A stretch of 64,000 bases of DNA from a virus. The stretch lies in IMG/VR virus record IMGVR_UViG_3300045988_139374, positions 160,001 through 224,000 of that record. The stretch is one strand, 5' to 3'. The notes below the pieces were generated by a model. It worked only from the letters and a program-made list of their open reading frames with translations. It was not told the DNA's origin and did no database searches. Shown here piece by piece: positions 1,395 to 17,600 of this stretch; within the stretch, counting starts at the first letter, position 1, and each line of letters begins with the position of its first letter. Both the position numbers and the translations under genes were made by a program.

Positions 1395-2218
1395 ATGGCT
1401 ACAATTAGGCAAATTAAAGTTAAAGATACATTGTATGATATTTCACCGTCTCCTAGTGGTACGCTTGATACCACTACTAAAGATAATGCATTTGCTTCTA
1501 GTGATGTTGCTCAAGCAAGTGCAACTTCTTGGACTGATGTAGCTGCTCTTGCTGCAACTGAAACTAACAAGAGCATGTTCACAAAAGCTACTCAGATGAT
1601 GAAAAATACCAGATACCTATATAATATTATTGGTACTGGTTTTAGTACTTCTAGTACTATTAAGAAAGCTATTGATGGAAAAGCAGCATCTAATCATAGT
1701 CATGATCTGAGTGCTATGATCAATGGACTTTCTGTTGGATCTGCTACTCCTCAAGATGCGGATTATTATGTGTGCCAATATGCGGGGGGGGGAACACCAC
1801 TTCCACATATCATAGAAGGCCGATGACTGCTCTTTGGGATTATATTAAGTCTAAAGGAAATAGTACTTGGCAACCTAAAGGAAGCTATGCTGCTGCAAAC
1901 CATAGTCACAATTATGCAGGATCTGGAAGTGCTGGTGGATCTGCAAATAGTGCAGTAAAGTTGGATACAGCAACTGCTGGTTCTACTACTCAACCTGTAT
2001 ACTTTAGTGGTGGTAAACCTGTAGCAATTGGATATACTATTGCTAAGAGCGTTCCTGCTGATGCTAATTTTAGTAATACTTGGCGTGGAATTCAGAATAA
2101 TCTTACTTCTACAGCAACAGATCAGTCCCTATCTGCTGCTCAGGGTAAAATTTTGAAAGATGCTCTTGATAAAAAGACTGGAGTTAGTGTATCTGGTACC
2201 ACTGTAGTATTTGGATAA
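1395..2218 (+). CDS. tail fibre protein with HxH motifs; reading frame broken at a G9 tract
   Basis: Track ORFs 1380..1826 and 1772..2218 overlap at G9 (1784-1792). The joined product reads ...YYVCQYAGGG|NTTSTYHRRP.... N-terminal ~110 aa are paralogous to 3172..4431 (FASSDVAQ, RYLYN, GTGFST, NHSH). ATG at 1395 follows GGGGG. Confidence 0.7.
1784..1792 (+). repeat. G9 homopolymer at the frame junction of the fibre gene
   Basis: Counted directly: gcGGGGGGGGGaacacc; +1 G or -2 G (or a -1 slip) fuses the two frames. Confidence 0.9.
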
Positions 2219-2276: not shown

Positions 2277-2570
2277 TCTGACGCTTCTATTAAGATCAAA
2301 ACAAAGTCTGGAAAATTTTCATATAGTAGCACTTACGGAAGAAATTATACATTTTATGATTATGAAGGAATATTTATTTCTGCATCAATTGACGGTATTG
2401 CATTTAACAATGATAATTATTTGTATAATTTGTATTATCCATCATTATATTCAATTCGTGTTAGTGATAAATATATTATTAAATCTTTCAATATTATAAG
2501 TTCTGATTCAGGAGGAAATAATATTTCTGGTATTGGAGATAATTTAAACATTATTATTTGCTATATTTAA
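2277..2570 (+). other. start-less fibre-tip-like cassette C1 (97 codons)
   Basis: Signal TGACGCTTCTATTAAG at 2279-2294. Frame TCT GAC GCT... gives SDASIKIKTKSGKF...NLNIIICYI-stop. TAA lies directly upstream in frame; no RBS or start codon. Confidence 0.6.
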
Positions 2571-2577
2571 AATTATT

Positions 2578-2612
2578 CAATAGAGAAATCTCTATTGGTT
2601 TTATTTTTTTTT
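2578..2612 (+). terminator. rho-independent terminator
   Basis: CAATAGAGA/TCTCTATTG palindrome 2578-2597 followed by T-run. Confidence 0.55.
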
Positions 2613-2634
2613 GTAGAATATATTAAAATACAAT

Positions 2635-3015
2635 AATCTGACGCTATTACGAAGTAGTCTGAGAAATCTGCCAAACCTCTATAAAAGGGCCTAAAATGGG
2701 CATTTTAAGAGGGTAAAATCGAGTGATTTTACACTTATTTTCAGTACTAAAAATTCAATTCAAGATAATAAATGTTTGATCAATAATCAATCTTAATTTA
2801 AAATATATAACAATATGGTAATGAAAGATGGTAGAAAAATCTTTTACCTTTAACAGCAGACACACAAACTATCTTTCATACATGAAGCATTCGATTTAAG
2901 ATTTATTGTGAAGACCGCTTTTAAGAGAGTCCCTTGGACTATAAACTGTGAAGACTTCGTTTAAGAAAATCAGATAAATCCATATCCAAGCCATTAAATG
3001 TAGTAGCGTCAGATT
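2635..3015. repeat. 16-bp inverted repeats (variant cassette signals) bounding a 349-bp non-coding segment
   Basis: AATCTGACGCTATTAC 2635-2650 versus the reverse complement of 3000-3015 (AATCTGACGCTACTAC): 15/16 match. Confidence 0.8.
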
Positions 3016-3065
3016 AAAATTGTGAAGCCTGCTTATATAGATTTTTGTGAAGACGACGGTTAAGA
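2882..3065 (+). repeat. five direct repeats of type GTGAAGAC-N5-TTAAGA
   Basis: R0 2882-2901, R1 2908-2926, R2 2948-2966, R3 3022-3041, R4 3047-3065; R1, R2 and R4 are each exactly 19 nt (GTGAAGAC N5 TTAAGA). Confidence 0.7.
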
Positions 3066-3073
3066 TTATTACT

Positions 3074-3111
3074 CGGTGTGGTCTTTATGATCACCCCGGA
3101 ATTTCTTTTTT
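3074..3111 (+). terminator. rho-independent terminator closing the non-coding module
   Basis: CGGTGTGGTC 3074-3083 pairs with GATCACCCCG 3089-3098 (9 of 10 positions), then a T-run. Confidence 0.5.
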
Positions 3112-3171
3112 AACAAAATATCACTATAAATAGCCCAAAATGGGTAATTTTAAGAAAGGAAATTTAATTTT

Positions 3172-4431
3172 ATGGCTATAATTGATAAAATTAAGGTTGG
3201 TAGCACTACCTATGATGTGTCGCCTTCTGCTTCTGGTACTCTGAACACTACTGGCACTACTAAGTTTGCTTCTAGTGACGTTGCTCAGGGAAATGCAACT
3301 GGCTGGACTAATGTAGATCAGATGACCACTGCTGATAACCATGCTACTCTGTTTACTAAGATCACTCAGATGGCAAAGAACGTCCGCTATCTGTACAATG
3401 TTCTTGGTACTGGCTTCTCCACTGGTTCTACTGTTAAGGGTCAGATTGATGGAAAAGCAGCAGCTAATCACTCTCACAAGGTTGCTCAACTGCCTACTTC
3501 TAGTACTCAAGTTAACTCCAATGACTATATTCCTACTTCTGCTCTGATCTATTCTATGAATCAGACTCTAACTTCGCTAAATGACGCTAGTAATAAACTT
3601 GGAGTCAGGATTTATAATACTAAATATGCAGTTGGAGGTATTCCTACCAAATCCCAATTTGCTGCAACTGACACTGTACAAAGCATTATTATTAAAATGC
3701 TAGGAGATATGGGTCAGAAACCCATTGACTCTTCTACACCTAATACAAGATATAAGTCTCAGAATCTTGGTACTTGGTCTAGTGTTAGTGATGTAGATAA
3801 TTTTCTTTATAGTTGTTGTCATGATACTGGTTATTATGGTGCTACTATTGGTAGTTATGTTACGATTAAAGATGGTGTATATAATAAAGAATGGATTATT
3901 GCTGGTTTTGATTGTGAAAAGAATCATAAAGCTTCCGATGGCAATACAAAGGATAATGGATATGGTATATGCTTAATACCTAAGAAGAGCTTAGGTAATT
4001 ATGTATGGGATTCTAATTCTATTATAAATGGATACAACGGATCTGAAATGCATAAGTCTACATTACCTGTAGTTGCGAATAATCTTAGAAAAGTATTAGG
4101 AAATCATCTTGTACAGCGTAATGTCCTTCTGAGTAATGCTGTAGATTCTAACTATTATGCTAAAGGCTATTTTTGGACTACTGCATATTGTACTCTTATG
4201 AGTACAGGACAAGTAACTGGTACATTTGCTTCTAATAGAAACAAGTATGATGATGGAGAAGCTAATTATAAACTTCCTTTGTTTAATTATGAAATATGGA
4301 GTTTTGATACCTGGGCCTGGTTGCGAGGGCTATTCGGCTACGGTGTCTATGGCCTTACCACTTCTGGTGGTTCTGGTTATGACATCTGTTACGTTAGTCA
4401 CGGTCTTCGCCCGCTCATTTATATTAGGTAA
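3172..4431 (+). CDS. DGR target: tail fibre / receptor-binding protein with C-terminal variable region
   Basis: 419-aa ORF. The N-terminus is paralogous to fibre 1395..2218 and includes NHSH. The C-terminus WAWLRGLFGYGVYGLTTSGGSGYDICYVSHGLRPLIYIR-stop resembles the CLec/FGE-type VR scaffold; the VR lies within the last ~115 nt of the ORF. Confidence 0.85.
   Translation: MAIIDKIKVGSTTYDVSPSASGTLNTTGTTKFASSDVAQGNATGWTNVDQMTTADNHATLFTKITQMAKNVRYLYNVLGTGFSTGSTVKGQIDGKAAANHSHKVAQLPTSSTQVNSNDYIPTSALIYSMNQTLTSLNDASNKLGVRIYNTKYAVGGIPTKSQFAATDTVQSIIIKMLGDMGQKPIDSSTPNTRYKSQNLGTWSSVSDVDNFLYSCCHDTGYYGATIGSYVTIKDGVYNKEWIIAGFDCEKNHKASDGNTKDNGYGICLIPKKSLGNYVWDSNSIINGYNGSEMHKSTLPVVANNLRKVLGNHLVQRNVLLSNAVDSNYYAKGYFWTTAYCTLMSTGQVTGTFASNRNKYDDGEANYKLPLFNYEIWSFDTWAWLRGLFGYGVYGLTTSGGSGYDICYVSHGLRPLIYIR
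4317..4417 (+). repeat. DGR variable region (VR)
   Basis: 101 nt align to TR with 12 mismatches, every one opposite a TR adenine. Confidence 0.9.
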
Positions 4432-4437
4432 TGGAAC

Positions 4438-4456
4438 TAGCCACCTTGTGTGGCTA
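4438..4456 (+). promoter_or_regulatory. hairpin just 3' of VR (candidate DGR homing-enhancing hairpin/cruciform)
   Basis: TAGCCAC 4438-4444 / loop CTTGT / GTGGCTA 4450-4456, about 20 nt after the VR end and 7 nt after the stop codon. Confidence 0.5.
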
Positions 4457-4537
4457 AGTGGAATTACCGTAATATAAATGAAAGGTGAAGGCTTAACGAG
4501 TAAATATATTATTAATATAAAATAAGAGGTGGTTTGT

Positions 4538-5347
4538 GTGTCTGTCGTTAAGGGTAAAAGAAATCAATCTGATGTTGAATATTTTGATTATGCATATAAA
4601 GTTGTGGAGCATATAACTAAATTTCTTTTATCTGATCTTGGGATTAAGAAAACTTATAGAGACTTAAAAGTTTTTACTTATAAATCTCATATGGAGGAAG
4701 CTGATAAAGAAGAATTTGAGCATTTAGTAAATAAGTATGATTTGGAATTGGAAACAGATTTTCCTAATTGGCTAATGTGCTATTATAGAGAAACATTATT
4801 AACAATCATGAGAGATCTAATCAATAATATATCTGCAGCTTATACACTATATCCAAATTCTGTTTATGAATTTAATATCAAGAAACAGTATATTTCTGAT
4901 TCTATAGCTAATTGTTTCGATTTAAAACATCAACTCCAATTAGTAATTAGAATATTTCCAGCAAATATGAAGAAATATATTCCATTTGTAAAAGAAATCG
5001 ATAAGGAAATAGAGCTTCTTAAACAGTGGCGAAAGAACTTTACAGGAATTTCTAAGAAGCATTGCTACAATCAAGATGAAATCGCTAAGAGAGATGCTAT
5101 TAAGAGAGTAAATAAGATTGAAGCAAAGAATGAGCGTAAACTTCAAGTGAACAATAATTTCCTTGTAGAATATATGAAAGCAGTTTACACTCAACAAGTG
5201 CTTATGGATAATCTATATCATACAACCTTCTATTATAATCAGCAAAATCAGTATTGCTCCGAACTGCCTATTGCAGCTTGTACATTCTTTGATCAAAATG
5301 GATATTATATTGGAGATTCTGCTCATGATTTTGTTACAACTAACTAA
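4538..5347 (+). CDS. candidate DGR accessory protein (Avd-like by position), otherwise hypothetical
   Basis: ORF lies between the target gene and TR. In-frame GTG at 4538 follows AAGAGGTGG. Predicted helical and basic. At ~270 aa it is longer than a typical Avd. Confidence 0.5.
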   Translation: MSVVKGKRNQSDVEYFDYAYKVVEHITKFLLSDLGIKKTYRDLKVFTYKSHMEEADKEEFEHLVNKYDLELETDFPNWLMCYYRETLLTIMRDLINNISAAYTLYPNSVYEFNIKKQYISDSIANCFDLKHQLQLVIRIFPANMKKYIPFVKEIDKEIELLKQWRKNFTGISKKHCYNQDEIAKRDAIKRVNKIEAKNERKLQVNNNFLVEYMKAVYTQQVLMDNLYHTTFYYNQQNQYCSELPIAACTFFDQNGYYIGDSAHDFVTTN

Positions 5348-5378
5348 ATAGTAAGGTGACTCTCTATAAATAATCTCG

Positions 5379-5497
5379 CTGGTTGCGAGGGCTATACGGC
5401 AACAACAACCTCAACAACAACAATGTCTATGGCCTTACCACTTCTGGTGGTTCTGATTATAACAACTGTAACAATAGTAACGGTCTTCGCCCGATCA
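5379..5497 (+). repeat. DGR template region (TR)
   Basis: 119 nt, AAC/AAT-rich (WLRGLYGNNNLNNNNVYGLTTSGGSDYNNCNNSNGLRPIN in the VR frame), intergenic between avd-like gene and RT. Confidence 0.9.
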
Positions 5498-5651
5498 ACA
5501 GCATCTTGGCAATTTAAGGATCGAAAGATCTGGCCAGGATGTCTGTATGAGGAGGGAGTTCCCTTTCCGAAAGGAAGAAACAATAAAGCTGGCTACGGTT
5601 CTGGCATTACGATGCTGAATCTATTGGGCTGGTATATTTTTTTTTATTTTT

Positions 5652-6938
5652 ATGATTATTGATTTTAGTAATGAAGATTGGGGCGAAAATCCCTGTGAAT
5701 ATACTGAAGGAAAATTAGATTCTATTGCAGATCCAGATAAATTATATCAATCTTATAGAAAAGCTTCTAAACCAATTTATTATAAAGCATCTACTCAAAG
5801 ATATGGATTAAATCTATTATCTAATATTGCTATTGCAAATGAAGCATTAAATAATGGATCTTATAAAATTGGAGATCCATATGAATTTATTCTCACAGAA
5901 CGCGGTAGAATTAGATATGTAAAAGCATTATATATGTTTGATCAAGTAGTGCAGAGATCTTTCAATGATAATGTATTAAATCCTGCTATTGCTAATAAGA
6001 TGATTTATGATAATGGAGCTTGTGTAAAAGGAAAAGGTGTTGCTTTTACAAGAATGAGATTTAAGCAGCATCTACAACAAGCATATTATCAATTTGGATA
6101 TGATGGTTATATAATGATCATCGATTTTTCTAAATATTTTGATAATATTCTTCATCAAGAAGCTTTAAAACAATTCGAACCTCTATTAACGCCAGAAGAA
6201 TACAATTTTCTTAAAATTACTTTTGATACATTCAAACTAGATGTATCTTATATGTCAGATGCAGAATATCTAGAAGCTAGAGATTCTCTGTTTAATCTTC
6301 TAGAATATTCTATGATGGCAAAAGAAAATTTCAAAGGATTAAAGCTTCTTGAAAAGTCTGTTGGAATTGGTAATCAAACTTCTCAAGGAACTGGAATGTA
6401 CTATCCTCATGAAATAGACAATTATGTGACTATAGTAAGAGGATATGGATTATATGGAAGGCATATGGATGATACATATGTATTTGCTAAAACTAAAGAA
6501 GAATTACAACAACTTCTTGAAGAAATAAAAGAATTGTGTAAGAATCTTGGAATTCATATTAATCTTAAGAAAACTAGAATAGAACCCATCAAGAATACAA
6601 TTTCATATCTTAAAATAAATTATAAAATTATTGAAACTGGAAGAGTATTTGAATTAGTCCCAAATAAAGTATTTAAAAGAGAAAAAGATAAATTAACAAA
6701 ATATAGGGATCTTTGCATTCAATATAAAATGACTGCTATTACAGTTCTTCAATGTTATCTTAGTTGGAGAGGTGTATATAATAAATTTGATTCTAAAAGA
6801 AAAATATATGCACTGGATTGCTATTTTAAAGATCTTTATTGTTTAGGATTTAGAGATACAAATCTATATGATTTGTTGCATTTCTATATGCGTGTAGAAA
6901 GAGAGAAATTAAATAACTATCCAGTCATGAAATATTAA
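5652..6938 (+). CDS. DGR reverse transcriptase
   Basis: IIDFSKYFDNI (motif A-like), VGIGNQTSQ (the DGR-typical [I/L]GNxxSQ), YGRHMDDTYVF (YxDD box). Confidence 0.9.
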   Translation: MIIDFSNEDWGENPCEYTEGKLDSIADPDKLYQSYRKASKPIYYKASTQRYGLNLLSNIAIANEALNNGSYKIGDPYEFILTERGRIRYVKALYMFDQVVQRSFNDNVLNPAIANKMIYDNGACVKGKGVAFTRMRFKQHLQQAYYQFGYDGYIMIIDFSKYFDNILHQEALKQFEPLLTPEEYNFLKITFDTFKLDVSYMSDAEYLEARDSLFNLLEYSMMAKENFKGLKLLEKSVGIGNQTSQGTGMYYPHEIDNYVTIVRGYGLYGRHMDDTYVFAKTKEELQQLLEEIKELCKNLGIHINLKKTRIEPIKNTISYLKINYKIIETGRVFELVPNKVFKREKDKLTKYRDLCIQYKMTAITVLQCYLSWRGVYNKFDSKRKIYALDCYFKDLYCLGFRDTNLYDLLHFYMRVEREKLNNYPVMKY

Positions 6939-6943
6939 AATAC

Positions 6944-6980
6944 TAGGTAAGGAATTTATTTCCTTACCTATTTTATTTTT
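6944..6980 (+). terminator. rho-independent terminator
   Basis: TAGGTAAGGAA 6944-6954 pairs with TTCCTTACCTA 6960-6970, followed by T-run. Confidence 0.7.
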
Positions 6981-7026
6981 AATTTTTTATTTGACAATTA
7001 ATTACTAAATTTAAGGAGGCTTATAT

Positions 7027-7617
7027 ATGTCCGACAAACGTACTGATTACATTTCTAAAGATCAAATGTATATGGGAATTGCTCAACTTGCTGCAATGAG
7101 ATCTAAAGATCCTAATTCTCAAGTTGGTGCAGTTTTTGTATCTTCTAATGATCGTATCCTTAGCATTGGTTATAATGGATTTCCTAATGGAATTTCTGAT
7201 GATGAATTCCCTTGGGCAAGAGAAGCTGAATCTGAAGAGAATACTAAATATCCTTATGTAGTTCATGCAGAAGAAAATGCTATTCTTAACTTCCGTGGAG
7301 ACCTTTCTGCTTTTAAAGGCTCTACTCTTTACGTAACAATGTTTCCTTGCCATAACTGTACGAAGGCTCTTATTCAAGTTGGCGTTAAGCATATTTATTA
7401 TGGTATTAATAAATATCCTGATACGGCAGATTTTAGAGAAGCTACTAGAATGCTTGATGCTGTTGGAATCAAGTATGAACAACTGGTCAATGATATGATT
7501 ATTATATCAACAAAAGATTTTATTGATGCTTTTAATAATCTATCAGATAAATCAAGAGATTTAACAGATCTAACAGGGTTTGTTGATAGGATGAATTTTC
7601 CTGAGTATTATAAATAA
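7027..7617 (+). CDS. dCMP deaminase (cytidine/deoxycytidylate deaminase fold)
   Basis: VVHAEENAI and MFPCHNCTKALIQVG (HAE...PCxxC zinc motifs); AAGGAGG RBS. Confidence 0.8.
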   Translation: MSDKRTDYISKDQMYMGIAQLAAMRSKDPNSQVGAVFVSSNDRILSIGYNGFPNGISDDEFPWAREAESEENTKYPYVVHAEENAILNFRGDLSAFKGSTLYVTMFPCHNCTKALIQVGVKHIYYGINKYPDTADFREATRMLDAVGIKYEQLVNDMIIISTKDFIDAFNNLSDKSRDLTDLTGFVDRMNFPEYYK

Positions 7618-7747
7618 TTCTTAAAATTTCTTTTGAGGATATATTATAATATTGATAGAAAGGAGTGGTAATATGATTAGGCCACCGTAACAATAGTATT
7701 CTTAAATCTCCAAAAGTATAAAATCACTAAGGAGGATAATTTCAAAC

Positions 7748-9463
7748 ATGGAAAACAATAATGTCAATCTATCTAAATATGGATATCAAGAGCAAAGATA
7801 TCCTATTGATACTACTGGCTATAAGCAACTTCATGACTATAACATCGAGTATCAGATGGCACATCAGAAGGAGTTTAACTTCCTTCAGCCTCTTCCTAAT
7901 GATCTTATGTCTACTACTAAGACATATCCTCATTCTGATGAGTTTGAGTTTTCTGGACAGCTTGAAATCATTAATTATGATAAAGCTTGTGAAGAAGACC
8001 TTAGGGAAGGAAATGGTTTTATTGTAGAACCAGCTGGTAGAAATATCAAGAAAGATCTTCATGCTGAGGATGGTATTTTCTCTCCTAAGTTTGGACAAAC
8101 CTTGGCTGATACTAATCCTTTTATGGATCGTTATCGTTGTCGGTGTAAAGAAGGAGGGCTTCGTGGCCGTAATAATGCCGGTTTGCGTTGTCCAAAATGT
8201 GGTCATCTATGTTCTTATGTAGATGATAATTTTAATTATCGTGGATGGATTAAACTTTCTGAGCCTTATAAGTTTATTCATCCTACCTTCTACACTTATA
8301 TCGATTCTATCCTTGGTAAAGGTATCTATATCCAGGGTAATAAGCGTACTAAGCTTGAAAATATTCTTGACGTTACTGATACTCAATTGGTTCTTAATTC
8401 TATTAAGATTGATGATCCCAAACTTAAAGATGAACCGTTCTTTGGTATTGGAATGATTGCTTTTGTCGAACGCTTTGATGAGATCATGGATTATTATATC
8501 AAGAAGCGCCCTAATAAGCGTAATTATTATGATGCCATTTATCAGTCTCGTGATTCTGTATTTTCATCTTCGCTTCCTGTCATCACTACATTGCTTCGTC
8601 CGTTCGATATAGATGGCAACAACATGACCTATGAGCCAACGAATGCAATGTATACAATGATTAATAAACTTGCTACTTCTATTAATAAGAATAAAACTGC
8701 TATCCAGAGAGAACCTAAAATCAAGAACCAGCAGCTTTATAATCTTCAAAAGAAGTTTATGGAAATTTATGCTGAACAAATTTCTATTCTAGCAGGTAAG
8801 AAGGGAGATTTTAGATGTCTACTTGGTGGACGTTATAACTTCTCTTCTCGTTGTGTTATTGTTCAAAATCCTAATCTTCGTATTGATGAGATTACTATGC
8901 CTGCTGTAGCATTGACTGTTATGCTTGAGCAAAGAATTAAAAATATTCTCTGCCGTATGCATGGTATGACTCCTACACAAGCACATGATATTTGGTATAA
9001 AGCTACTATTGAGCCTAATAAACGTATAAATACCATTATTCAATCCATCATCGATGATTTTAAACACAAAGGCATGCGTGGGCTTCCGGTTATCATTGGA
9101 CGAAATCCTACACTTGCTTATGGCTCTATTCTGCAAATGTTCTGTGTTGGGATTACTGATTCTTATACCTTAGCAGTTCCTCTACAGATCTTAAAATTCT
9201 TGGCTGCTGACTTCGACGGCGACGTTATATATTGCTTGGTTCCGATGAATCAGACTTTTATTCGTCTTGCTTGGGAAAAATTCAATCCTAGGAATGCTAT
9301 GTATATTTCTAGAGATAATGGATATTTCAATCCCAATGCATTGATGCAAAGAGATACACTTATTAATGCTAATACTTTAGCAAGATTAGGAAGGGAGAAT
9401 TACACACAAGAAGATCTTAATAAGTTCGATAGAATTCAGAAAGCTATTAAAGCAGCTGGTTAA
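7748..9463 (+). CDS. multisubunit RNA polymerase beta-prime-like subunit, N-terminal fragment
   Basis: CRCKEGGLRGRNNAGLRCPKCGH (CxC...CxxC zinc ribbon); GRNPTLAYGSILQM (compare NRAPTLHRLGIQAF); LAADFDGDVIY (catalytic DFDGD at 9209-9223); only 571 aa, so a split beta-prime. Confidence 0.8.
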   Translation: MENNNVNLSKYGYQEQRYPIDTTGYKQLHDYNIEYQMAHQKEFNFLQPLPNDLMSTTKTYPHSDEFEFSGQLEIINYDKACEEDLREGNGFIVEPAGRNIKKDLHAEDGIFSPKFGQTLADTNPFMDRYRCRCKEGGLRGRNNAGLRCPKCGHLCSYVDDNFNYRGWIKLSEPYKFIHPTFYTYIDSILGKGIYIQGNKRTKLENILDVTDTQLVLNSIKIDDPKLKDEPFFGIGMIAFVERFDEIMDYYIKKRPNKRNYYDAIYQSRDSVFSSSLPVITTLLRPFDIDGNNMTYEPTNAMYTMINKLATSINKNKTAIQREPKIKNQQLYNLQKKFMEIYAEQISILAGKKGDFRCLLGGRYNFSSRCVIVQNPNLRIDEITMPAVALTVMLEQRIKNILCRMHGMTPTQAHDIWYKATIEPNKRINTIIQSIIDDFKHKGMRGLPVIIGRNPTLAYGSILQMFCVGITDSYTLAVPLQILKFLAADFDGDVIYCLVPMNQTFIRLAWEKFNPRNAMYISRDNGYFNPNALMQRDTLINANTLARLGRENYTQEDLNKFDRIQKAIKAAG

Positions 9464-9641: not shown

Positions 9642-9875
9642 TTAGATATAAAATATTCTTACATTATATTTTACTATAGAAATAAGTTGTTTATTTAGAT
9701 CGATATTAAATGTAACGATTACATAATTTAAATAATCAGGGACGTAATATATGGCAACATATGGAAATCCAGAGATTGAATTTATGTCTGCACATATTGC
9801 AGATATTACAATTATATTGTTAAATGATTTCATTTCTGAAATATACATATCTCTTTGCTTAATAGAAGCGTCATT
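9642..9875 (-). other. start-less cassette C4 (77 codons), last of the minus-strand array
   Basis: Signal at 9858-9873 (rev); NDASIKQRDMYISEM...VRIFYI-stop. Confidence 0.55.
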
Positions 9876-10168
9876 TACATATCAAAATACCAACATTTGC
9901 ATGTAATAGGATTTTTACCATCGGTATATATTTCATTATCTGCAAGCCTTCCGACTTTTGTCATATAAACTTCACAGTTAGTAACTTTAAATGTACCATC
10001 ATCAAAATATCCACTGGCAGCTATTACAGGAAATGTATAATATCCAGCATTTCCTTTTGGATATAGTATTGGCATTGCTTGAATTATATATGCTTTAGAT
10101 AAGTACCCGCATGATGCATATTCACTATATGGAACTTTACAAGTATTAGTTTTAAGAGAAGCGTCATT
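9875..10168 (-). other. start-less cassette C5 (97 codons)
   Basis: Signal at 10151-10166 (rev, TGACGCTTCTCTTAAA); NDASLKTNTCKV...KCWYFDM-stop. Confidence 0.55.
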
Positions 10169-10496
10169 GTGCTTTACCTTTAATATAAAATATATTAATG
10201 ATGACTTCTGCATTTGATAAAGATGTTTTGTTAAAAGGCATAATTTTTTCATGCAATGTATCAATACCTAGTATATATAATTTTCTGCCAGTTGTCCAAA
10301 TACCAGTATTTGGATCTTGTGTTGAATCGATACTTGTAGATAGGAAAGTTAAATACATTCTAACAGTATTACTACAATATGCATAGTGAGCTATAATATC
10401 ATCATCAGTAACAGAAATATCTGTATCAAGAATAAAATAAGAAATATCATTCTTTACTCTACCTTGCTTCATTTTAATTTTAGTAGAAGCGTCATT
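10164..10496 (-). other. start-less cassette C6 (110 codons)
   Basis: Signal at 10479-10494 (rev); NDASTKIKMKQGRV...INIFYIKGKAQ; the stop is the TGA inside the next signal. Confidence 0.55.
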
Positions 10497-10506
10497 TATA
10501 TTGGTA

Positions 10507-10767
10507 TTATAGATTTTTTAAATAAAATACAATTAATCTTCTAATAGATGAATGCATTGTTAAAGTATTATTAGGGAATCCTCTTATATCTATATAATAA
10601 CATGAATCATCTTCATCATACCATATATCTACATATTCAGCTTGCTCAGTTTTACCTGTTATTTTAGATTCAATATAAAGTCCAACAATTGGAATTCCTA
10701 AATAAAAAGCTTGTTTACTACTTTTTGGAAGAGTTAATTCTATATTATATATAATAGAAGCGTCATT
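10507..10767 (-). other. start-less cassette C7 (86 codons)
   Basis: Signal at 10750-10765 (rev); NDASIIYNIELT...LIVFYLKNL-stop. Confidence 0.55.
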
Positions 10768-11065
10768 TACCAAAATAATAATATATTTTTATATTAAATG
10801 CTGTATTTACTTTTATTAATTTATAATCATTAATTTCAAACAATTGAATTATAGAATAAAAACTACCCTTTTCATATATTCCTTGATACATTGCTGGAAA
10901 TATATACTTAGGAGAATAATTGATAGGAAATAATGTTTGATTATACGTGGTACTATACACAGCAAATATTATATATGCTGATAGCCCAGATGGCACATCA
11001 TATCTTTCTTTATATATTCCATTCTCATCAGTTGTTACATCTTTACTCTTAATAGAAGCGTCATT
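10763..11065 (-). other. start-less cassette C8 (100 codons)
   Basis: Signal at 11048-11063 (rev); NDASIKSKDVTT...IKIYYYFGK; the stop is the TGA inside the next signal. Confidence 0.55.
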
Positions 11066-11384
11066 CACTAATATAATAGTATATTTTAATACCAATTTTA
11101 TCTGATGGCTTTATAAGCTGTCCATTGTCATTTATTTTATATACTTGAATTACAATATATCTATTAACAGCATCTGCAATTTTTCCATATGAGCCAGAAT
11201 ATATTGCAGGAATTATATATATTGGAACATTCATTTGATTTACTAGATTTCCAGTCATTGTGGATGTATTACTATATATCGCTAAAATATTTTTATGAGA
11301 ACTAATTCCAAATACGCCTAATGCAATTTTATATTCTCCACTGCTATCAGTTTCCACTATTTCATGTTTAATAGAAGCGTCAGA
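11061..11384 (-). other. start-less cassette C9 (107 codons)
   Basis: Signal at 11367-11382 (rev); SDASIKHEIVET...IKIYYYISE; the stop is the TGA inside the next signal. Confidence 0.55.
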
Positions 11385-11388
11385 CTTG

Positions 11389-11673
11389 TTAAATATAATA
11401 TATAATAATTGAAACATTACGTCCATTACGAGATGCCGTGCTGCCATTAATATCTGATGTATATACAAGAATAGTTCTAATTACCCATTCAACATCTGTA
11501 GTTTTAAATATTTGAATTAATGGAATAGATGAACTGGTATTTACAGCTGGATTTATGTATGCATTTATTAAAATTCCATTAGTAAATTTATATAAGTAAT
11601 CATTGTCATTTAAACCATTTGAATATTTTCTAGGATATACGGTATCAGTTTTAATCTTAATAGAAGCGTCAAA
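11389..11673 (-). other. start-less cassette C10 (94 codons), first of the minus-strand array
   Basis: Signal at 11656-11671 (rev); FDASIKIKTDTVYPRK...VSIIIYYI-stop; no ATG/GTG/TTG in frame, so it is absent from the ORF track. Confidence 0.55.
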
Positions 11674-12919: not shown

Positions 12920-13001
12920 GCAGGAATGGTGGAATGGCAGACACGCTAGACTTAGGATCTAGTTCTTCGGAGTGAGGGTTCAAGTCCCTTTTCCTGCACC
13001 A
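12920..13001 (+). tRNA. tRNA-Leu (anticodon TAG), class II with long variable arm, CCA encoded
   Basis: Acceptor GCAGGAA/TTCCTGC; anticodon stem CTAGA/TCTAG with loop CTTAGGA; T-arm GAGGG-TTCAAGT-CCCTT; variable hairpin TTC-TTCG-GAG. Confidence 0.85.
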
Positions 13002-13033
13002 TGTAGAATTATCTCCCCTAATTCTACTCATAA

Positions 13034-13110
13034 GGGCTATTAGCTTAGTTGGTCAGAGCTTCTGGCTCATAACCGGATGGTCGTAGGTTCGAGTCCTACA
13101 TGGCCCACCA
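13034..13110 (+). tRNA. tRNA with CAT anticodon (elongator Met or Ile2), CCA encoded
   Basis: Acceptor GGGCTAT/ATGGCCC; anticodon loop CTCATAA; T-arm GTAGG-TTCGAGT-CCTAC. Confidence 0.85.
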
Positions 13111-14672: not shown

Positions 14673-17600
14673 ATGGCTAAGTCTAAAAACAAAGACAACA
14701 ATAAAACTGGCCCTATTGCATATGCCAAAAATGTAGTAAAGTCTGCTAAGTATATTGCTGTTGAGACTGCCAAGGGTGTTAATCCTACACTTACTAGCTA
14801 TATTGCTGATAATGCTTCTGCTGCAAAGGATATGTACAATGCAGCGAAGGATTATAAAGGAACTATTCGTAAGAAGCTAGAAGACTCTATTGGATCTAAA
14901 AATACCGATCAACTTGGACAAATTAAGAAAGATATTTTTAGTGATCTAAAATCTGGTAAATTCTACAATCCTGAACGTGAAGCAGAGTCCATGAACAAAC
15001 TAGCAGAATCTTGGGGAATGACTTCCTTTGATTTTGATATGGATGATGATTTCGATCTAGATTCTGATAATGATGACGATACTGATAGCTCTACTACATC
15101 TTCTAAATCTAATGATATAGATGTAGTTACTGGAGCTATCCATGGTCTTGGAAATCAGATTTCTTATCACCAGCTTATTACTGGTGAGGGAATTGCTGGT
15201 AAGATCGGTGGAGCTAATATCAAGAATACTAGAGCAATGATGACAAATAATAATAGACTCGCTGGAATGTTGAATAATTCCTTGTCTGTTATTAATACTT
15301 CTATTCTTGATCTTCATAAGGATCTAGTAGAACCTCTCAATGGACACATTCAGAATTCTACTAGTTTTTATCAAACAGCTACATCTGAGCTGGCTAAGCA
15401 AACTAGTTATTTGGAGACTATCACTAAACTACTAACAGATAGATTTGCTCCCGTTGCCACTAGTAAAGGTAGTGGAATTAAAGAGACTCCTTGGGAAGCA
15501 GTTATGGGTGGAGATTTGCCGAATCTAGGTAACTGGATTAAGCATGCCAAGAATAAATCAATGGAAGATTCTGGAATGGACTCCCTTGCTGCTATTATGA
15601 ATCCTGAGATGCTGGAGACTTTACTAGGTGCTGGTATGCATTCTCCTATTGCATTGGCAATTACTATGGCTCTTACATCTAAGATTCAAAATGGCCCTAC
15701 CGGTAAAGCTCTAGATAGAACTGTCAATATTTTTAGAGATGGTATGATGAAGGTCGCTGGACAGATTCATAAAGCATCTAAGAATGATGGTATTCTAGGT
15801 ACCATTGCTAGTTTCTTTGACATTACTCCTCATTTTAATCCTAAGATGAATTTCGGTAATTATAATAAGGGACGAGTAGATTGGACTGGTAAGGACTCTA
15901 AAGCACTGAGAGATGTTATTCCTACTTATCTAGCAAATATTGAAGCTTTGCTATCTGGCAGAGAAGCTAAAGTATTTAACTATGAAACTGGTAGATTTAC
16001 ATCTGCAAGTAATGGCTTTAATGAATTTAAGAAATCTAGACAGGCTAATATCGGTAATGCTTCTAAGGGTATGAAGGAAGAACTTCTTCAAGAATTTATC
16101 GATGAAGATAAAGAGAAGTATAAGAATGATGAAAACCATATTGCTTATACTAGAGAATCTAGAGCTGTTAGAAATCTATCTGATGATTATGATAAGATGA
16201 TGTCTCTTATTACTCTAAATCATATTGATCCTTCTAAATTTGATTCTGCTCAGAGTATGCTTACTCTTCTTCGTCAAAGAGGATGGATTAATGATGATCC
16301 TACTAAGGGATTCATTTCTAACAAGAATGCTCGTGCTATTGCTAGACTTATTTTCAAGAAAAAGTCTGGTGTTGGTAAAATGAATAATGCTATCTATTCT
16401 GGACAGATTGCAAATGCTAGATTTGTTGATACTATCAATGAAACTAATCCTATGTTTGCTGCAGTGGCAAATGGATCTGGTATGACTAATACTCACAAAC
16501 TAAAAAGCAATCTAAATAAGAATAGTGCAGATGCTGTTACTATGGCACTTGATGATCATGGTAATAATATTTTCTTCTATCTGCAAGATTATTATAAGCA
16601 AATTAGAGTTATGGTAGACTCTATGTCTGCATCTAACTTTAATTTGTCTACTATCAAGAATGAAATTATTAGTAGATTTAATGGAGGATTTGGTAATACA
16701 GAAAACTCCACTGGAACTTCTGGTAATAGACGCCAGCCTAAGAAGAGAAAAGAATCTTCTAGAGCAAGTAGAGCAGCTGCTGCAGATGCTGGAGCTGGCG
16801 GCTCAGACTCTGGATTTAGATCTCTATATAATTTCAATTACGACGTTCCTAACAATATAGCTCCTGAGATTATTACTCCTGAAATGGCCGAAGCTTCTGC
16901 TGGAGCTTCGGAGAGAGAAGCTGCAATTGAAGATCCTGAAGGAAGAATGGTATATAATTCCTCTACTAAGCGATATGAAGCTCCTAAGGCTTCTTCTAGA
17001 GGATCTTTCCTAAAGTTTAAGGAAAATGCTAAAGATCATAGTATCCTATCTATCATCGTTGATAAATTCAATGATTTTATGGATAATACGCTCTTCGGTA
17101 ATGCGCCTGCTGCATTTAAGCAGAAGATTGACGAAGAAGGTGGTCTGTTCGGATACCTGCAATCTTTGCCCAATAAGATTGCTACAGGTCTACAGGATCT
17201 TCCTGATAAAATTGCAAATAAAACTAGTGAATTATGGAAGAAGTTCCAGGAATCTGATTTTGGCAAGAAATTCATGGAATCTTCTAAGAATATTATTTCT
17301 AGTTTCTTTAAAGATACAGAACAATATGCTGAAAGAAAAGCTCAGGGTACTTTAAAGTATCTATTTAAGAATACTAGATTTGATCTCGATAAGAAAGAAA
17401 AAGAAAACGAAGAGGCAATTAATGGACCTATTGCTCTATTACCTCAACATGCTGAATCTTTAATTCCTGAAGATGCTAATCCTGAAGGATCTTATAGAGG
17501 TGGATTAGTTAATAAATCTGGAATGGTTTCTGTTTCTAAAGGTGAATTGATTGTTCCTGCAAAATATAATCCTCTTTATAATGGTGGATTGTCTGATAAA

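Follow-up and report, generated by a model that had tools for sequence, protein, structure and literature searches.

Diversity-generating retroelements (DGRs) are very common in gut phages, and the element described here is therefore a well-documented case of a known kind, not a new kind. [quoted passage not shown] Among phages of gut Clostridia (Faecalibacterium prophages, phages nd4/nd12, and Toutatisvirus), putative receptor-binding proteins carry the variable repeat (VR) at the C-terminal end of a DUF6273 / C-lec-like domain (PMC10743442, PMC11792537, bioRxiv 10.1101/2024.10.15.618418); DUF6273 is C-type-lectin-like and a recurrent DGR target in gut phages (PMC10743442, PMC11792537). In-frame length differences between the template repeat (TR) and the VR at AAC repeats have been described in ~7% of DGRs, mostly 'Lineage 4-related' (Wu et al. 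2018, NAR 46:11; PMC5758913), with slippage of the reverse transcriptase (RT) as the proposed cause (PMC5758913; the model also appears in PMC12875486).

We analyzed a 64-kb window, meaning the whole stretch of DNA and not the DGR cassette alone, from a human-gut phage of ~270 kb. Positions 3172-6938 almost certainly constitute a complete and currently active BPP-1-type DGR ordered target - avd - TR - RT. A sequence-only reading had proposed a complete DGR in this order, and it was right on both counts, as each canonical component was tested and found: a fibre target gene with its VR, an Avd-type accessory gene, a TR, a structured spacer, and an RT.

Components of the cassette and its modular fibre

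The features, read from the sequence, are as follows.

1395..2218, + strand: paralogous fibre gene with the same shaft, outside the DGR, in two frames (ORFs 1395-1826 and 1823-2218)
2577-2598: terminator-like hairpin upstream of the cassette, matching that at 6944..6970
3172..4431, + strand: DGR target gene (ORF), 419 aa, with an N-terminal fibre shaft (aa 1-136), NDASNK as the junction (aa 137-142), and a DUF6273 / C-type-lectin-like head at the C-terminus (about aa 185-419)
3580..3597, + strand: shaft/head junction motif AAT GAC GCT AGT AAT AAA (NDASNK), a copy of the recurring cassette-junction motif TGACGCTTCTAWTAAG that has diverged
4317..4417, + strand: VR, 101 nt, encoding aa 383-416 (WLRGLFGYGVYGLTTSGGSGYDICYVSHGLRPL)
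4402..4417, + strand: IMH-like VR 3' end, GC-rich GGTCTTCGCCCG then CTCA (75% GC against 33% for the genome)
4438..4456, + strand: hairpin TAGCCAC-CTTGT-GTGGCTA, 21 nt past the VR, a candidate target-recognition cruciform
4538..5347, + strand: accessory gene, 269 aa, starting at GTG 4538
5379..5497, + strand: TR, 119 nt, non-coding, reading WLRGLYGNNNLNNNNVYGLTTSGGSDYNNCNNSNGLRPI in the VR frame
5400..5417, + strand: piece of the TR Asn-codon tract (CAACAACAACCTCAACAA), 18 nt, without VR counterpart
5482-5497: IMH*-like TR counterpart of the IMH-like VR end, ending ATCA
5498..5651, + strand: spacer between TR and RT, probably forming the structured 3' portion of the DGR RNA
5518-5531 and 5562-5577: spacer hairpins, each with a GAAA loop
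5603-5616: spacer hairpin GGCAT-TACG-ATGCT
5652..6938, + strand: DGR reverse transcriptase, 428 aa
6944..6970, + strand: intrinsic-terminator-like hairpin and T-run at the end of the cassette

Over its N-terminal 108 aa the target shares 58% identity with ORF 1395-1826 (E=7e-40). The shaft had been described as common to a single fibre gene at 1395..2218; the sharing stands, but a G9 homopolymer (1784-1792) divides that gene into two ORFs read in different frames, and Pfam Phage_fiber_rpt is found in ORF 1823-2218. The head matches phage DUF6273, receptor-binding, and tail-fibre proteins (best E 2e-19), and four members of the target family match Pfam DUF6273. Modeling of the C-terminal domain, suggested as a check on a proposed CLec-fold scaffold, gave a confident head model (pLDDT ~90) but weak direct structural matches to solved C-type lectins or Mtd; the CLec fold is supported via DUF6273, not via a strong match to a solved C-type lectin.

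We also observe that the fibre is modular: a junction motif with 19 copies in the window marks where the shaft is joined to one or another start-less head cassette; silent start-less head cassettes occur in both orientations, and the copy in the DGR target has 3 mismatches to the repeated motif. In a related locus (L096), another head cassette follows the sequence that lies upstream of the junction here (window 2635-3603), and relatives differ by gained or lost cassettes and relocated modules, with the breakpoints lying at the junction motif. Phage Mu Gin/G, P1 Cin/C, p15B Min, and the R64 shufflon are multiple-inversion/cassette systems for phage tail-fibre C-termini and, for this side observation alone, offer a parallel: a short conserved sequence links a constant N-terminal fibre part to one of several C-terminal cassettes. 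In contrast to those systems, no invertase was found in the 64-kb window, no inversion of cassettes was seen among relatives, and the junction copy in the DGR target has diverged.

The RT is of the DGR type and a full-length homologue of BPP-1 Brt by profile comparison (family HHalign 99.1%, E=1e-18, 301 columns), and its only PDB relative is 8ub7_A, BPP-1 Brt itself. Searches with RT models, as had been recommended, gave RVT_1 at E=1e-12 and phrog_1423 at E=7e-50. The IGNQTSQ and HMDD motifs already noticed lie at aa 239-245 and aa 271-274 (the catalytic box), and a further aspartate, D158, lies in IDFSKYFDNI. All members of the family retain the [IVL]GxxxSQ motif and the catalytic D and MDD residues, although the window RT has HMDD where 105/120 relatives have YMDD.

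The accessory gene is conserved between VR and TR in ~55 related loci. Its product, about twice the usual Avd size, has a predicted Avd-type four-helix core (~aa 1-175) with a ~36-aa insertion between helices 1 and 2 and a clade-specific C-terminal extension of ~95 aa. Sequence searches against Pfam, PHROG, NCBIfam, and PDB give no match to it, nor does it detectably resemble bAvd in sequence; its best fold matches are the four-helix bundles 2rld and 2gsc, at a weak E-value (0.3). The family nevertheless aligns over its full length with the annotated Avd of Shimadzu (HHalign 98.4%, E=4.5e-15), by which it is homologous to an annotated phage Avd. The earlier designation 'avd-like' is apt as to family, for a protein that at 269 aa is oversized and escapes those sequence searches.

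The post-VR hairpin (DNA fold -18.2 kcal/mol, z=-6.2) sits within a longer inverted repeat (4416-4480), and related loci carry hairpins at the same place with unrelated, covarying stems and mostly the same CTTGT loop. The spacer (RNA fold z=-3.0) shows compensatory changes relative to locus L007, and distant relatives share a covarying YACG-loop hairpin; a covariance model built from these relatives matches the window spacer weakly, at a non-significant 4.2 bits.

Adenine bias and length mismatch of the repeats

The TR and VR are the sole such repeat pair in the window. On a recomputed alignment all 12 substitutions fall at TR adenines, exactly where they had been placed before (hypergeometric P=4.4e-9, given that 25 of the 101 aligned TR bases are A). 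The bias extends across the clade, with 106/114 pooled mismatches at A over nine loci and 11/11, 13/15, and 15/16 in three further loci. AAC or AAT makes up 12 of the 39 TR codons, bearing out the reported richness, and 32/34 in-frame TR adenines occupy the first or second position of a codon. We reject one of the 12 differences, TR 5494, as a mutagenized site: the TR base is indeed A, as claimed, but the difference from VR 4414 (A versus C) is identical in 12/12 related clade loci examined, and it is therefore a fixed IMH/IMH*-type boundary difference, leaving 11 variable sites. The seventh variable codon encodes Tyr in all clade alleles read there (window, L002, L003, L012, P0123, P0124, and P0126), which shows selection.

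The repeats differ in length, which, like the modular make-up of the fibre, the sequence-only reading missed; its 101-nt alignment reflects a real repeat pair that is not collinear. The TR exceeds the VR by 18 nt (5400-5417), such that TR codons G-NNNLNNNN-V correspond to G-YG-V in the VR; the six absent Asn codons are six of the eight templated codons of the first variable patch. VR minus TR length is 0, -3, -6, or -18 in 12 clade loci and is never positive, and the changes are always multiples of 3 within the AAC tract. Some separate genomes with no more than one other substitution in 9 kb, and natural target alleles range from 419 to 439 aa, with a first loop of 2 to ~12 residues.

RT slippage on the AAC repeats is the most likely cause of VR shortening; since an (AAC)n tract templates the first patch, homing would also give in-frame length variants. 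The mismatch could instead have arisen in DNA, either by replication slippage expanding the TR (AAC)n after the last full-length homing or by the VR losing codons through DNA-level slippage or selection. TR tracts do vary by strain (3+3, 4+2, 4+3, and 3+2 AAC codons flanking a variable middle codon), and loss of 15 nt between TAC repeats could turn an L003-like VR into the short VR of L002. We nonetheless consider a DNA route unlikely, if deserving of some weight: the 119-nt TR is identical in the window, L002, L003, and L012, whose VRs are 101 or 116 nt; the VR never exceeds the TR across up to 7 independent events (one-sided sign test, 0.008); and the -18 form accompanies two different TR variants (window and L014). 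Slippage in VR DNA is also less likely than RT slippage on AAC-repeat RNA because the mutagenized VR tract is no longer repetitive. In-frame mismatch at AAC repeats is an already described phenomenon, and the DGRs of Wu et al. (PMC5758913) share multiple-of-3 indels within or adjacent to TR AAC codons. The present case differs in being seen at the population level (9/12 clade loci mismatched, the VR always shorter) and among otherwise near-clonal genomes.

Variation in natural populations

Population diversity of the VR, proposed earlier as a test, is evident in public assemblies. Relative to the window, near-identical genomes from other samples place 6/7, 5/5, and 22/23 of their differences over 8-13 kb inside the 101-nt VR (86-100%; P 1e-10 to 1e-15), where they affect A-templated positions and the length of the loop. 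The window, L002, L003, and L012 carry the same TR and RT, and L005 the same TR, yet the VRs differ. These consensus assemblies argue that the DGR is active in natural populations.

That the cassette is instead a decaying, non-functional relic, with the 18-nt mismatch and the His of the YxDD box as marks of decay and with old VR differences, is very improbable. It would accommodate the unequal repeats and HMDD in place of YMDD, as well as L093, a related phage that keeps the head gene with no DGR alongside, and L013, a related locus in which 6/18 TR/VR mismatches are non-A. It is at odds with genomes 99.9% identical over 8-13 kb that have the same TR and RT and differ almost only at A-templated VR sites, with intact and conserved RT, accessory, and target ORFs in every clade locus, and with invariant catalytic Asp residues; in-frame AAC-repeat differences are, moreover, known from functional-looking DGRs (PMC5758913).

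VR alleles look like mosaics: L002 has its 5' part in common with the window, whereas L002 and L003 share the 3' half and differ in the 5' half, which simple 3'-anchored homing does not account for, so that recombination between alleles or patchy repair would be needed. Together with a fibre locus that is demonstrably recombinogenic at the cassette motif and the selection evident from the fixed Tyr, this could be taken to mean that ordinary mutation under strong diversifying selection, or fibre-allele recombination, generates the variability and the RT is uninvolved. We regard this as scarcely credible: neither selection nor recombination is expected to confine changes to the adenines of a non-coding TR (12/12 in the window, ~93% over the clade), the TR is invariant where the VR varies, and each VR tracks the TR of its own strain at non-A positions (L014 and L010).

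Proposed mechanism and comparison with known DGRs

By analogy with BPP-1, the active DGR would work as follows. The cassette is presumably transcribed, and the RT and the Avd-type accessory protein would jointly bind RNA comprising the TR and structured spacer. Reverse transcription of the TR, with random misincorporation opposite adenines, would yield cDNA that takes the place of the VR at the 3' terminus of the fibre gene, and the GC-rich IMH-like end would direct homing along with the hairpin shortly after it. On the DUF6273 (C-type-lectin-like) fibre head, the recoded residues would form two patches, aa 388-391 and aa 402-410, and receptor specificity would change as a result if the head binds the receptor as we suppose. 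The DGR rewrites the tip of a tail-fibre protein.

The element has the gene order of BPP-1, the VR at the 3' end of a (here putative) receptor-binding tail-fibre gene, the TR between accessory gene and RT, and an RT homologous along its whole length; adenine-only mutagenesis, a GC-rich IMH-like end with a TR/VR difference, a post-VR hairpin, and a structured spacer before the RT are also shared. It differs in an RT of 428 aa (328 in BPP-1) with a ~45-aa insertion between motifs and HMDD rather than YMDD, an accessory protein of 269 aa (128 in BPP-1) without detectable similarity to bAvd, a DUF6273 head without Mtd domains, TR and VR of unequal length, and a CTTGT hairpin loop rather than the GRNA tetraloop sought by myDGR (PMC6602519).

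Shimadzu has the same architecture, a full-length homologue of the accessory family (98.4%), and a tail fibre likewise ending in DUF6273. Its RT ranks with the nearest annotated phage RTs (31% identity across 89% of the query), with that of Acutalibacter phage Fontainebleau scoring similarly. Sequence identity is low throughout, however, and Shimadzu is a 45-kb phage whose Avd of 136 aa has neither the 36-aa insertion nor the C-terminal extension. The DUF6273-targeting DGRs of gut Clostridia phages likewise place the VR at a C-terminal DUF6273 / C-lec-like domain and have RTs distantly related to the one described here, and some of their relatives keep the target without a DGR, as L093 does. 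Those phages are 30-60 kb and often have two targets (tentaclins), whereas here a single target, in a ~270-kb genome, is fused to a fibre shaft common to other head cassettes.

The DGR cassette and VR turnover in natural genomes

The sequence-only reading had described a complete DGR diversifying a tail-fibre protein, and the present analysis supports that interpretation: the cassette at 3172-6938 is a real DGR, complete and, as judged from comparative sequence, evidently active, and it is directed at the head of a tail fibre. The component parts are as follows.

3172-4431: target, a 419-aa tail fibre with an N-terminal shaft (aa 1-136) and a DUF6273 head
4317-4417: VR, 101 nt
4538-5347: accessory ORF, 269 aa, between VR and TR
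5379-5497: TR, 119 nt
5498-5651: TR-RT spacer
5652-6938: RT, 428 aa, matching RVT_1 and PHROG 1423

All 12 TR/VR differences fall at TR adenines, as had been claimed, and with 25 adenines in 101 aligned TR bases this is very unlikely to arise by chance (P=4.4e-9); the differences are likewise essentially confined to adenines in 11 sister loci. The 101-nt alignment proposed earlier is a real repeat pair, but an 18-nt indel between TR and VR had gone unreported. In an ungapped comparison of 4290-4450 with 5370-5530, the 5' 21 nt match at an offset of 1062 and the 3' 80 nt at one of 1080, and gapped alignment reconciles the two repeats with a single 18-nt gap, leaving TR 5400-5417 with no counterpart in VR. 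The gap is in frame, and in the target frame TR reads WLRGLYG-NNNLNNNN-VYGLTTSGGSDYNNCNNSNGLRPI and VR reads WLRGLFG-YG-VYGLTTSGGSGYDICYVSHGLRPL. Nearly all TR adenines (32 of 34) occupy codon position 1 or 2, and the reported richness in AAC/AAT holds, with 12 of the 39 codons. No further copies of the repeat are present within the window.

Both repeats end in the GC-rich GGTCTTCGCCCG (75% GC vs 33% in the genome), followed by CTCA in VR and ATCA in TR, where the homology stops. The same CTCA/ATCA difference is fixed in all 12 loci of the clade (the window and its close relatives), and we thus interpret it as marking an IMH/IMH*-type boundary and do not count it among the mutagenised sites, with the repeat ends forming a putative IMH and a non-identical IMH*. 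The inverted repeat expected shortly 3' of a DGR VR is also present, as a hairpin (TAGCCAC-CTTGT-GTGGCTA, 4438-4456) with a 7-bp stem, 21 nt past VR and within a longer inverted repeat (z=-6.2). Hairpins occupy the same place in about 30 related loci, and as their stems are unrelated and the loop is mostly CTTGT, the covariation is clear. This loop is unlike the GRNA type of BPP-1, the Bordetella phage DGR prototype.

The RT carries both IGNQTSQ and the YxDD-type box HMDD, as previously read, conforming to the [I/V/L]GxxxSQ and catalytic xxDD motifs of DGR RTs. Among PDB sequences its sole relative of solved structure is 8ub7_A, which a search with the Brt sequence from NC_005357 shows to be BPP-1 Brt, and an RT profile built from 22 relatives aligns with Brt over 301 columns, of the 328 Brt residues (HHalign 99.1%, E=1e-18). 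Residues D158, M272, D273 and D274 and the motif [IV]G.Q.SQ are invariant or nearly so in the family, whereas the first position of the catalytic box is His in the window clade (HMDD) and Tyr (YMDD) in 105 of 120 relatives; the His-for-Tyr box is evidently compatible with activity. The closest annotated RTs belong to DGRs of gut Clostridia phages (Roseburia, Acutalibacter, and Faecalibacterium; 27-35% identity). Peptide-pattern scans of IMG/VR and GTDB representative genomes yielded no close RT relative, and therefore no clue to a host or a prophage, and the cassette DNA has no match among GenBank phages.

The exact RT protein is found on nine public contigs, and the 90% cluster of the target comprises six alleles, each 419 or 425 aa long, whose contigs measure 269-271 kb. 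Four clade loci (the window, L002, L012, and L003) have identical TR and RT and different VRs, and whole-locus alignments place nearly all of their differences within VR.

Differences from the window in whole-locus alignments of consensus assemblies
L002: span 12,938 nt; 7 differences; 6 in VR; 1 elsewhere, in a G homopolymer
L012: span 8,431 nt; 5 differences; 5 in VR; 0 elsewhere
L003: span 9,405 nt; 23 alignment columns; 22 in VR, including a 15-nt length change; 1 elsewhere

The probabilities of such concentration in VR are 1e-10 to 1e-15. The population-level check suggested earlier, diversity at VR, is thus answered by near-clonal public genomes that differ almost only there. VR-restricted differences are what an active DGR would predict, and VR turnover against a constant TR in these consensus assemblies is indirect evidence of ongoing mutagenic retrohoming. 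The alleles are mosaic: L002 has the 5' half of VR in common with the window and the 3' half in common with L003. Only part of this pattern would follow from 3'-anchored partial homing that crosses over within the central, A-poor 32 nt; the relation between the L002 and L003 VRs needs recombination or patchy repair.

The 154-nt TR-RT spacer, whose BPP-1 counterpart is a structured RNA and the priming region, folds better than its shuffles (z=-3.0), and comparison with L007, an intermediate relative with a 73% identical RT, reveals compensatory changes (GGCAT/ATGCT to GGTAT/ATACT, and TTGGC/GCCAG to CTAGC/GCTAG). In distant relatives the spacer has a YACG-loop hairpin in which all nine pairs covary, and in a targeted search a covariance model of those relatives finds the window spacer weakly at the expected place (4.2 bits); a whole-window search with the same model does not find it. 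An Rfam scan of the window reports two tRNAs only, and no described RNA family over the spacer. Terminator-like hairpins flank the cassette (2577-2598 and 6944-6970) and none lies within it; a sigma-70 promoter scan is uninformative (27 found vs 25.5 expected). We note that the region upstream of the target has four direct copies of ATTGTGAAGAC…TTAAGA (2905-3070) and a duplicated CTATAAA(T)A…AAAATGGG…TTTTAAGA element (2679-2717 and 3124-3162), the second copy of which contains TATAAATA and sits 10 nt before the target start codon. These repeats are candidate phage promoter or regulatory sites, and the region bearing them travels with the shaft module in the related locus L096.

The accessory protein and the target head

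The cassette has an accessory gene adjoining TR, the position held in DGRs by genes of the Avd, HRDC, MSL or CH1 class. Calling it avd-like, as the sequence-only reading did, is sound insofar as the protein is homologous to an annotated Avd from Roseburia phage Shimadzu, although it has no similarity to bAvd, the BPP-1 accessory protein, and is a protein of about twice the usual Avd size with no profile-library match. Neither the protein nor its profile matches Pfam, PHROGs, NCBIfam, or PDB sequences. The profile has no similarity to bAvd (probability 0.07%), which itself matches PF22296, and is negative against the candidate accessory ORF of phage nd12; by sequence, the protein falls outside the bAvd-like and 23S-IVP four-helix-bundle families.

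In about 55 related loci, VR and TR nevertheless enclose an ORF with the same motifs (KR..S..EF, LLLRDFG, ANSIYP, RR.YQ..AI..C, and LLKGWRKSDN), and the profile of this family (A2) aligns with Shimadzu orf23, labelled 'Avd' by its depositor and not by experiment, over columns 1-132 of 136 (HHalign 98.4%, E=4.5e-15). The AlphaFold model has four long helices (pLDDT 65 overall, about 80 in the core), and its five best fold matches among 350,542 PDB chains are the four-helix bundles 2rld and 2gsc, with target-normalised TM up to 0.82 and a weak E value (0.3). These bundles belong to the S23/IVP family, a family with which Avd has a relationship. The core is mildly basic (pI 8.3; family mean 8.4). 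From the conserved family, the Shimadzu match, the four-helix model and the basic core together, we accept the 269-aa protein as Avd-type. For comparison, bAvd is a pentamer of 128-aa subunits with a pI of about 9.5. Set against the Shimadzu Avd (136 aa), the window protein has about 36 aa inserted, and its clade has gained about 95 aa at the C terminus. These proteins define a larger Avd variant that is missed by Pfam, PHROGs and NCBIfam profiles, and annotation with those libraries therefore probably scores such cassettes as accessory-less.

The head of the target (aa 185-419) is modelled with high confidence and the N-terminal shaft poorly, and VR covers aa 383-416 of the 419 residues. Searches of BFVD with the head return DUF6273 proteins (probability 1.0, E down to 2e-19), together with annotated receptor-binding and tail-fibre proteins; PF19789 (DUF6273) is matched by 4 of 33 target-family members, and the window protein lies below the Pfam threshold. 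In published work, DUF6273 is C-type-lectin-like and repeatedly serves as a target of DGRs, VR being at its C terminus (PMC10743442, PMC11792537, bioRxiv 10.1101/2024.10.15.618418), and with this equivalence taken from PMC10743442 the target is a C-type-lectin-fold DGR target of the DUF6273 subclass, with VR at the C-terminal end of the head. The CLec fold inferred earlier for the head is thus upheld by way of DUF6273. Direct whole-chain fold matches to C-type lectins and to Mtd, the BPP-1 target, are present in the PDB and weak, because the shaft is disordered in the model. A sequence-profile search of the PDB returns only a coiled-coil match, which we dismiss as spurious.

Length differences between TR and VR

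The 18-nt deficit of the window VR has counterparts across the clade, in which TR and VR lengths were compared at all 12 loci.

TR and VR lengths (TR/VR, nt) in the 12 clade loci
119/101: window, L002, L012, L014
116/110: L097
119/113: L098
119/116: L003
122/119: L010, L011
119/119: L009
122/122: L013, L099

All of these indels are multiples of 3 and lie within the Asn-codon tract, and VR is never longer than TR (one-sided sign test, 0.008 with up to seven independent events). In the encoded proteins, natural alleles have a first variable loop of anywhere between 2 and about 12 residues. In-frame tract indels are found in a minority of distant relatives, in which VR may exceed TR (L022 and L049). 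We note that the VR of L022 is longer by 11 nt and has a 1-nt end offset, that of L049 is longer by 32 nt in the alignment and may contain a duplicated tract, and that of L025 has a 1-nt insertion; some of these oddities may be assembly errors in hypervariable sequence.

Length differences of this kind are already published. Wu et al. (2018) report them in 7% of DGRs, mostly as multiples of 3 and with 74% adjacent to AAC, and propose RT slippage (PMC5758913), a model echoed in PMC12875486. What is new here is the timing, in that length changes occur between genomes with at most one other substitution in 9 kb and with TR unchanged. This timing favours an origin linked to retrohoming over slow change at the DNA level. 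The turnover of both VR sequence and loop length, seen in near-clonal genomes from independent samples, supports the published idea of AAC slippage by DGR RTs.

TR itself also evolves. Among nine clade loci (window, L009, L010, L011, L013, L014, L097, L098, and L099), the AAC codons flanking the middle codon of the tract number 3+3, 4+2, 4+3 or 3+2, and the middle codon is CTC, GGC, GTC, TTC or AGC according to the strain, which is what one would see had an AAC codon at some time undergone adenine mutagenesis and been copied back into TR. In the distant locus L036, the TR (4226-4333) lacks AAC/AAT and equals the VR (3424-3531) at diversified positions; the two differ by seven mismatches, two of them at A, and sister loci such as L027 keep a normal A-rich TR. 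Either the L036 TR was overwritten by VR, which would inactivate the element, or the assembly is chimeric.

Fibre cassettes, phage context, and relation to known systems

The surroundings of the target are modular. With up to 3 mismatches allowed, the window has 19 copies of a 16-nt motif, TGACGCTTCTAWTAAG, in both orientations, compared with 1.6 expected, although two of the 19 look like chance matches.

2279, 3582, 11817, 46624, 48824, 49122, 49630: plus strand, motif copies
9858, 10151, 10479, 10750, 11048, 11367, 11656, 45862, 46100, 47102: minus strand, motif copies

Seven copies form a tandem minus-strand array (9858-11671). The motif translates to (S/N)DAS(I/L)K and begins start-less ORFs about 100 aa long, and a diverged copy in the target, NDASNK (aa 137-142), falls precisely where the shaft meets the head. 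A promoter role for the motif is less likely, since it keeps its reading frame and runs on in that frame into the start-less ORFs.

Gain, loss or relocation of cassettes among relatives has breakpoints exactly at the motif (L010, L004, and L095 vs L096). L010 lacks the cassette between two direct motif copies (window 2285-2633). In L096 another head is attached to the equivalent of window 2635-3603 (the shaft and the region upstream of it), and the DUF6273 head comes after the fused module, as a cassette that is start-less. L095 is 99.7% identical past the motif on its downstream side, but the shaft module is absent there. The syntenic site of L093, in a phage of about 259 kb, has the order integrase, 418-aa gene, head, dCMP deaminase, and RNAP beta', in which the head is a head-only DUF6273 ORF (7001-7990) with a VR-like C terminus; no accessory gene, TR or RT is found at this site, and the target is thus kept without a DGR.

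These motif-bounded differences point to a cassette-exchange system for fibre heads. Among the 12 relatives, insertion, deletion and relocation are the only changes seen at the motif, with no inversion. No recombinase was recognised near the motif arrays within the window; the nearby gene for a tyrosine recombinase is immediately upstream of the window. The combination of recombinase, inverted crossover sites and inversion isomers that marks a shufflon or invertible cassette is not found here. The motif core also forms a 17-nt inverted repeat (TAATCTGACGCTA…, at 2634-2650 and 3000-3016), which bounds a 349-nt segment just upstream of the target. This segment has the geometry of an invertible switch, and its inversion was rejected, the orientation being the same in 7 of 7 relatives.

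It is conceivable, though we consider it improbable, that the DGR-diversified head belongs to a programmed two-tier host-range system. In the first tier, a promoter-plus-shaft module (2635-3597) would recombine at the 16-20-nt motif, (S/N)DAS(I/N/L)K, with any of at least 15 silent, start-less head cassettes; in the second, the DGR would fine-tune the DUF6273 head, including its loop length via (AAC)n slippage. If the motif were the site of a dedicated recombinase, such as the product of the adjacent tyrosine-recombinase gene, this would be a jumbo phage that couples a DGR to a shufflon-like switch.

Genes in the window include those for virion proteins of jumbo-phage type, a dCMP deaminase and a split RNA polymerase beta' subunit, along with two tRNAs. 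Sibling contigs measure 269,204, 270,993, and 271,618 nt, which points to a genome size near 270 kb.

12920-13110: tRNA-Leu(TAG) and tRNA-Met

A single 3432-aa ORF (14673-24971) has an endolysin-like domain near its C terminus (aa 3087-3237); this giant protein probably belongs to the virion, ejection or tape-measure type. The RNA polymerase beta' gene (7748-9463) is uninterrupted at 9211 in the window, the exact position at which six relatives (L001, L004, L005, L013, L014, and L015) have an insertion of 0.54-1.5 kb; that of L005 contains an HNH/NUMOD4 ORF, and the insertion looks like a mobile group I intron or similar element. The fibre gene upstream of the target is divided by a G9 homopolymer (1784-1792) into ORFs 1395-1826 and 1823-2218. 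The run is G8 in the otherwise identical L002 and G9 in L012, and a single 274-aa fibre (…QYAGGGNTTSTYHRRPMTALWDYIK…) results only with G7 or G10; phase variation, programmed frameshifting and homopolymer sequencing error are all possible. Translational bypass over the stop and the hairpin after 2218 was rejected, as translation resumed at the sole GGA landing site would be in a junk frame.

The modular cassettes surrounding the target, with their putative exchange, are the most novel lead and the one most worth following up; they suggest how a large phage may pair coarse receptor-binding switching, by choice of cassette, with fine switching by DGR. Tail-fibre DGRs are very common in human-gut phages, with tens of thousands predicted (PMC8241571), and the existence of the window DGR brings no conceptual change; its use is that of a well-documented natural example, in which the enlarged Avd, the HMDD box and the strong variation in loop length are variations on published themes.
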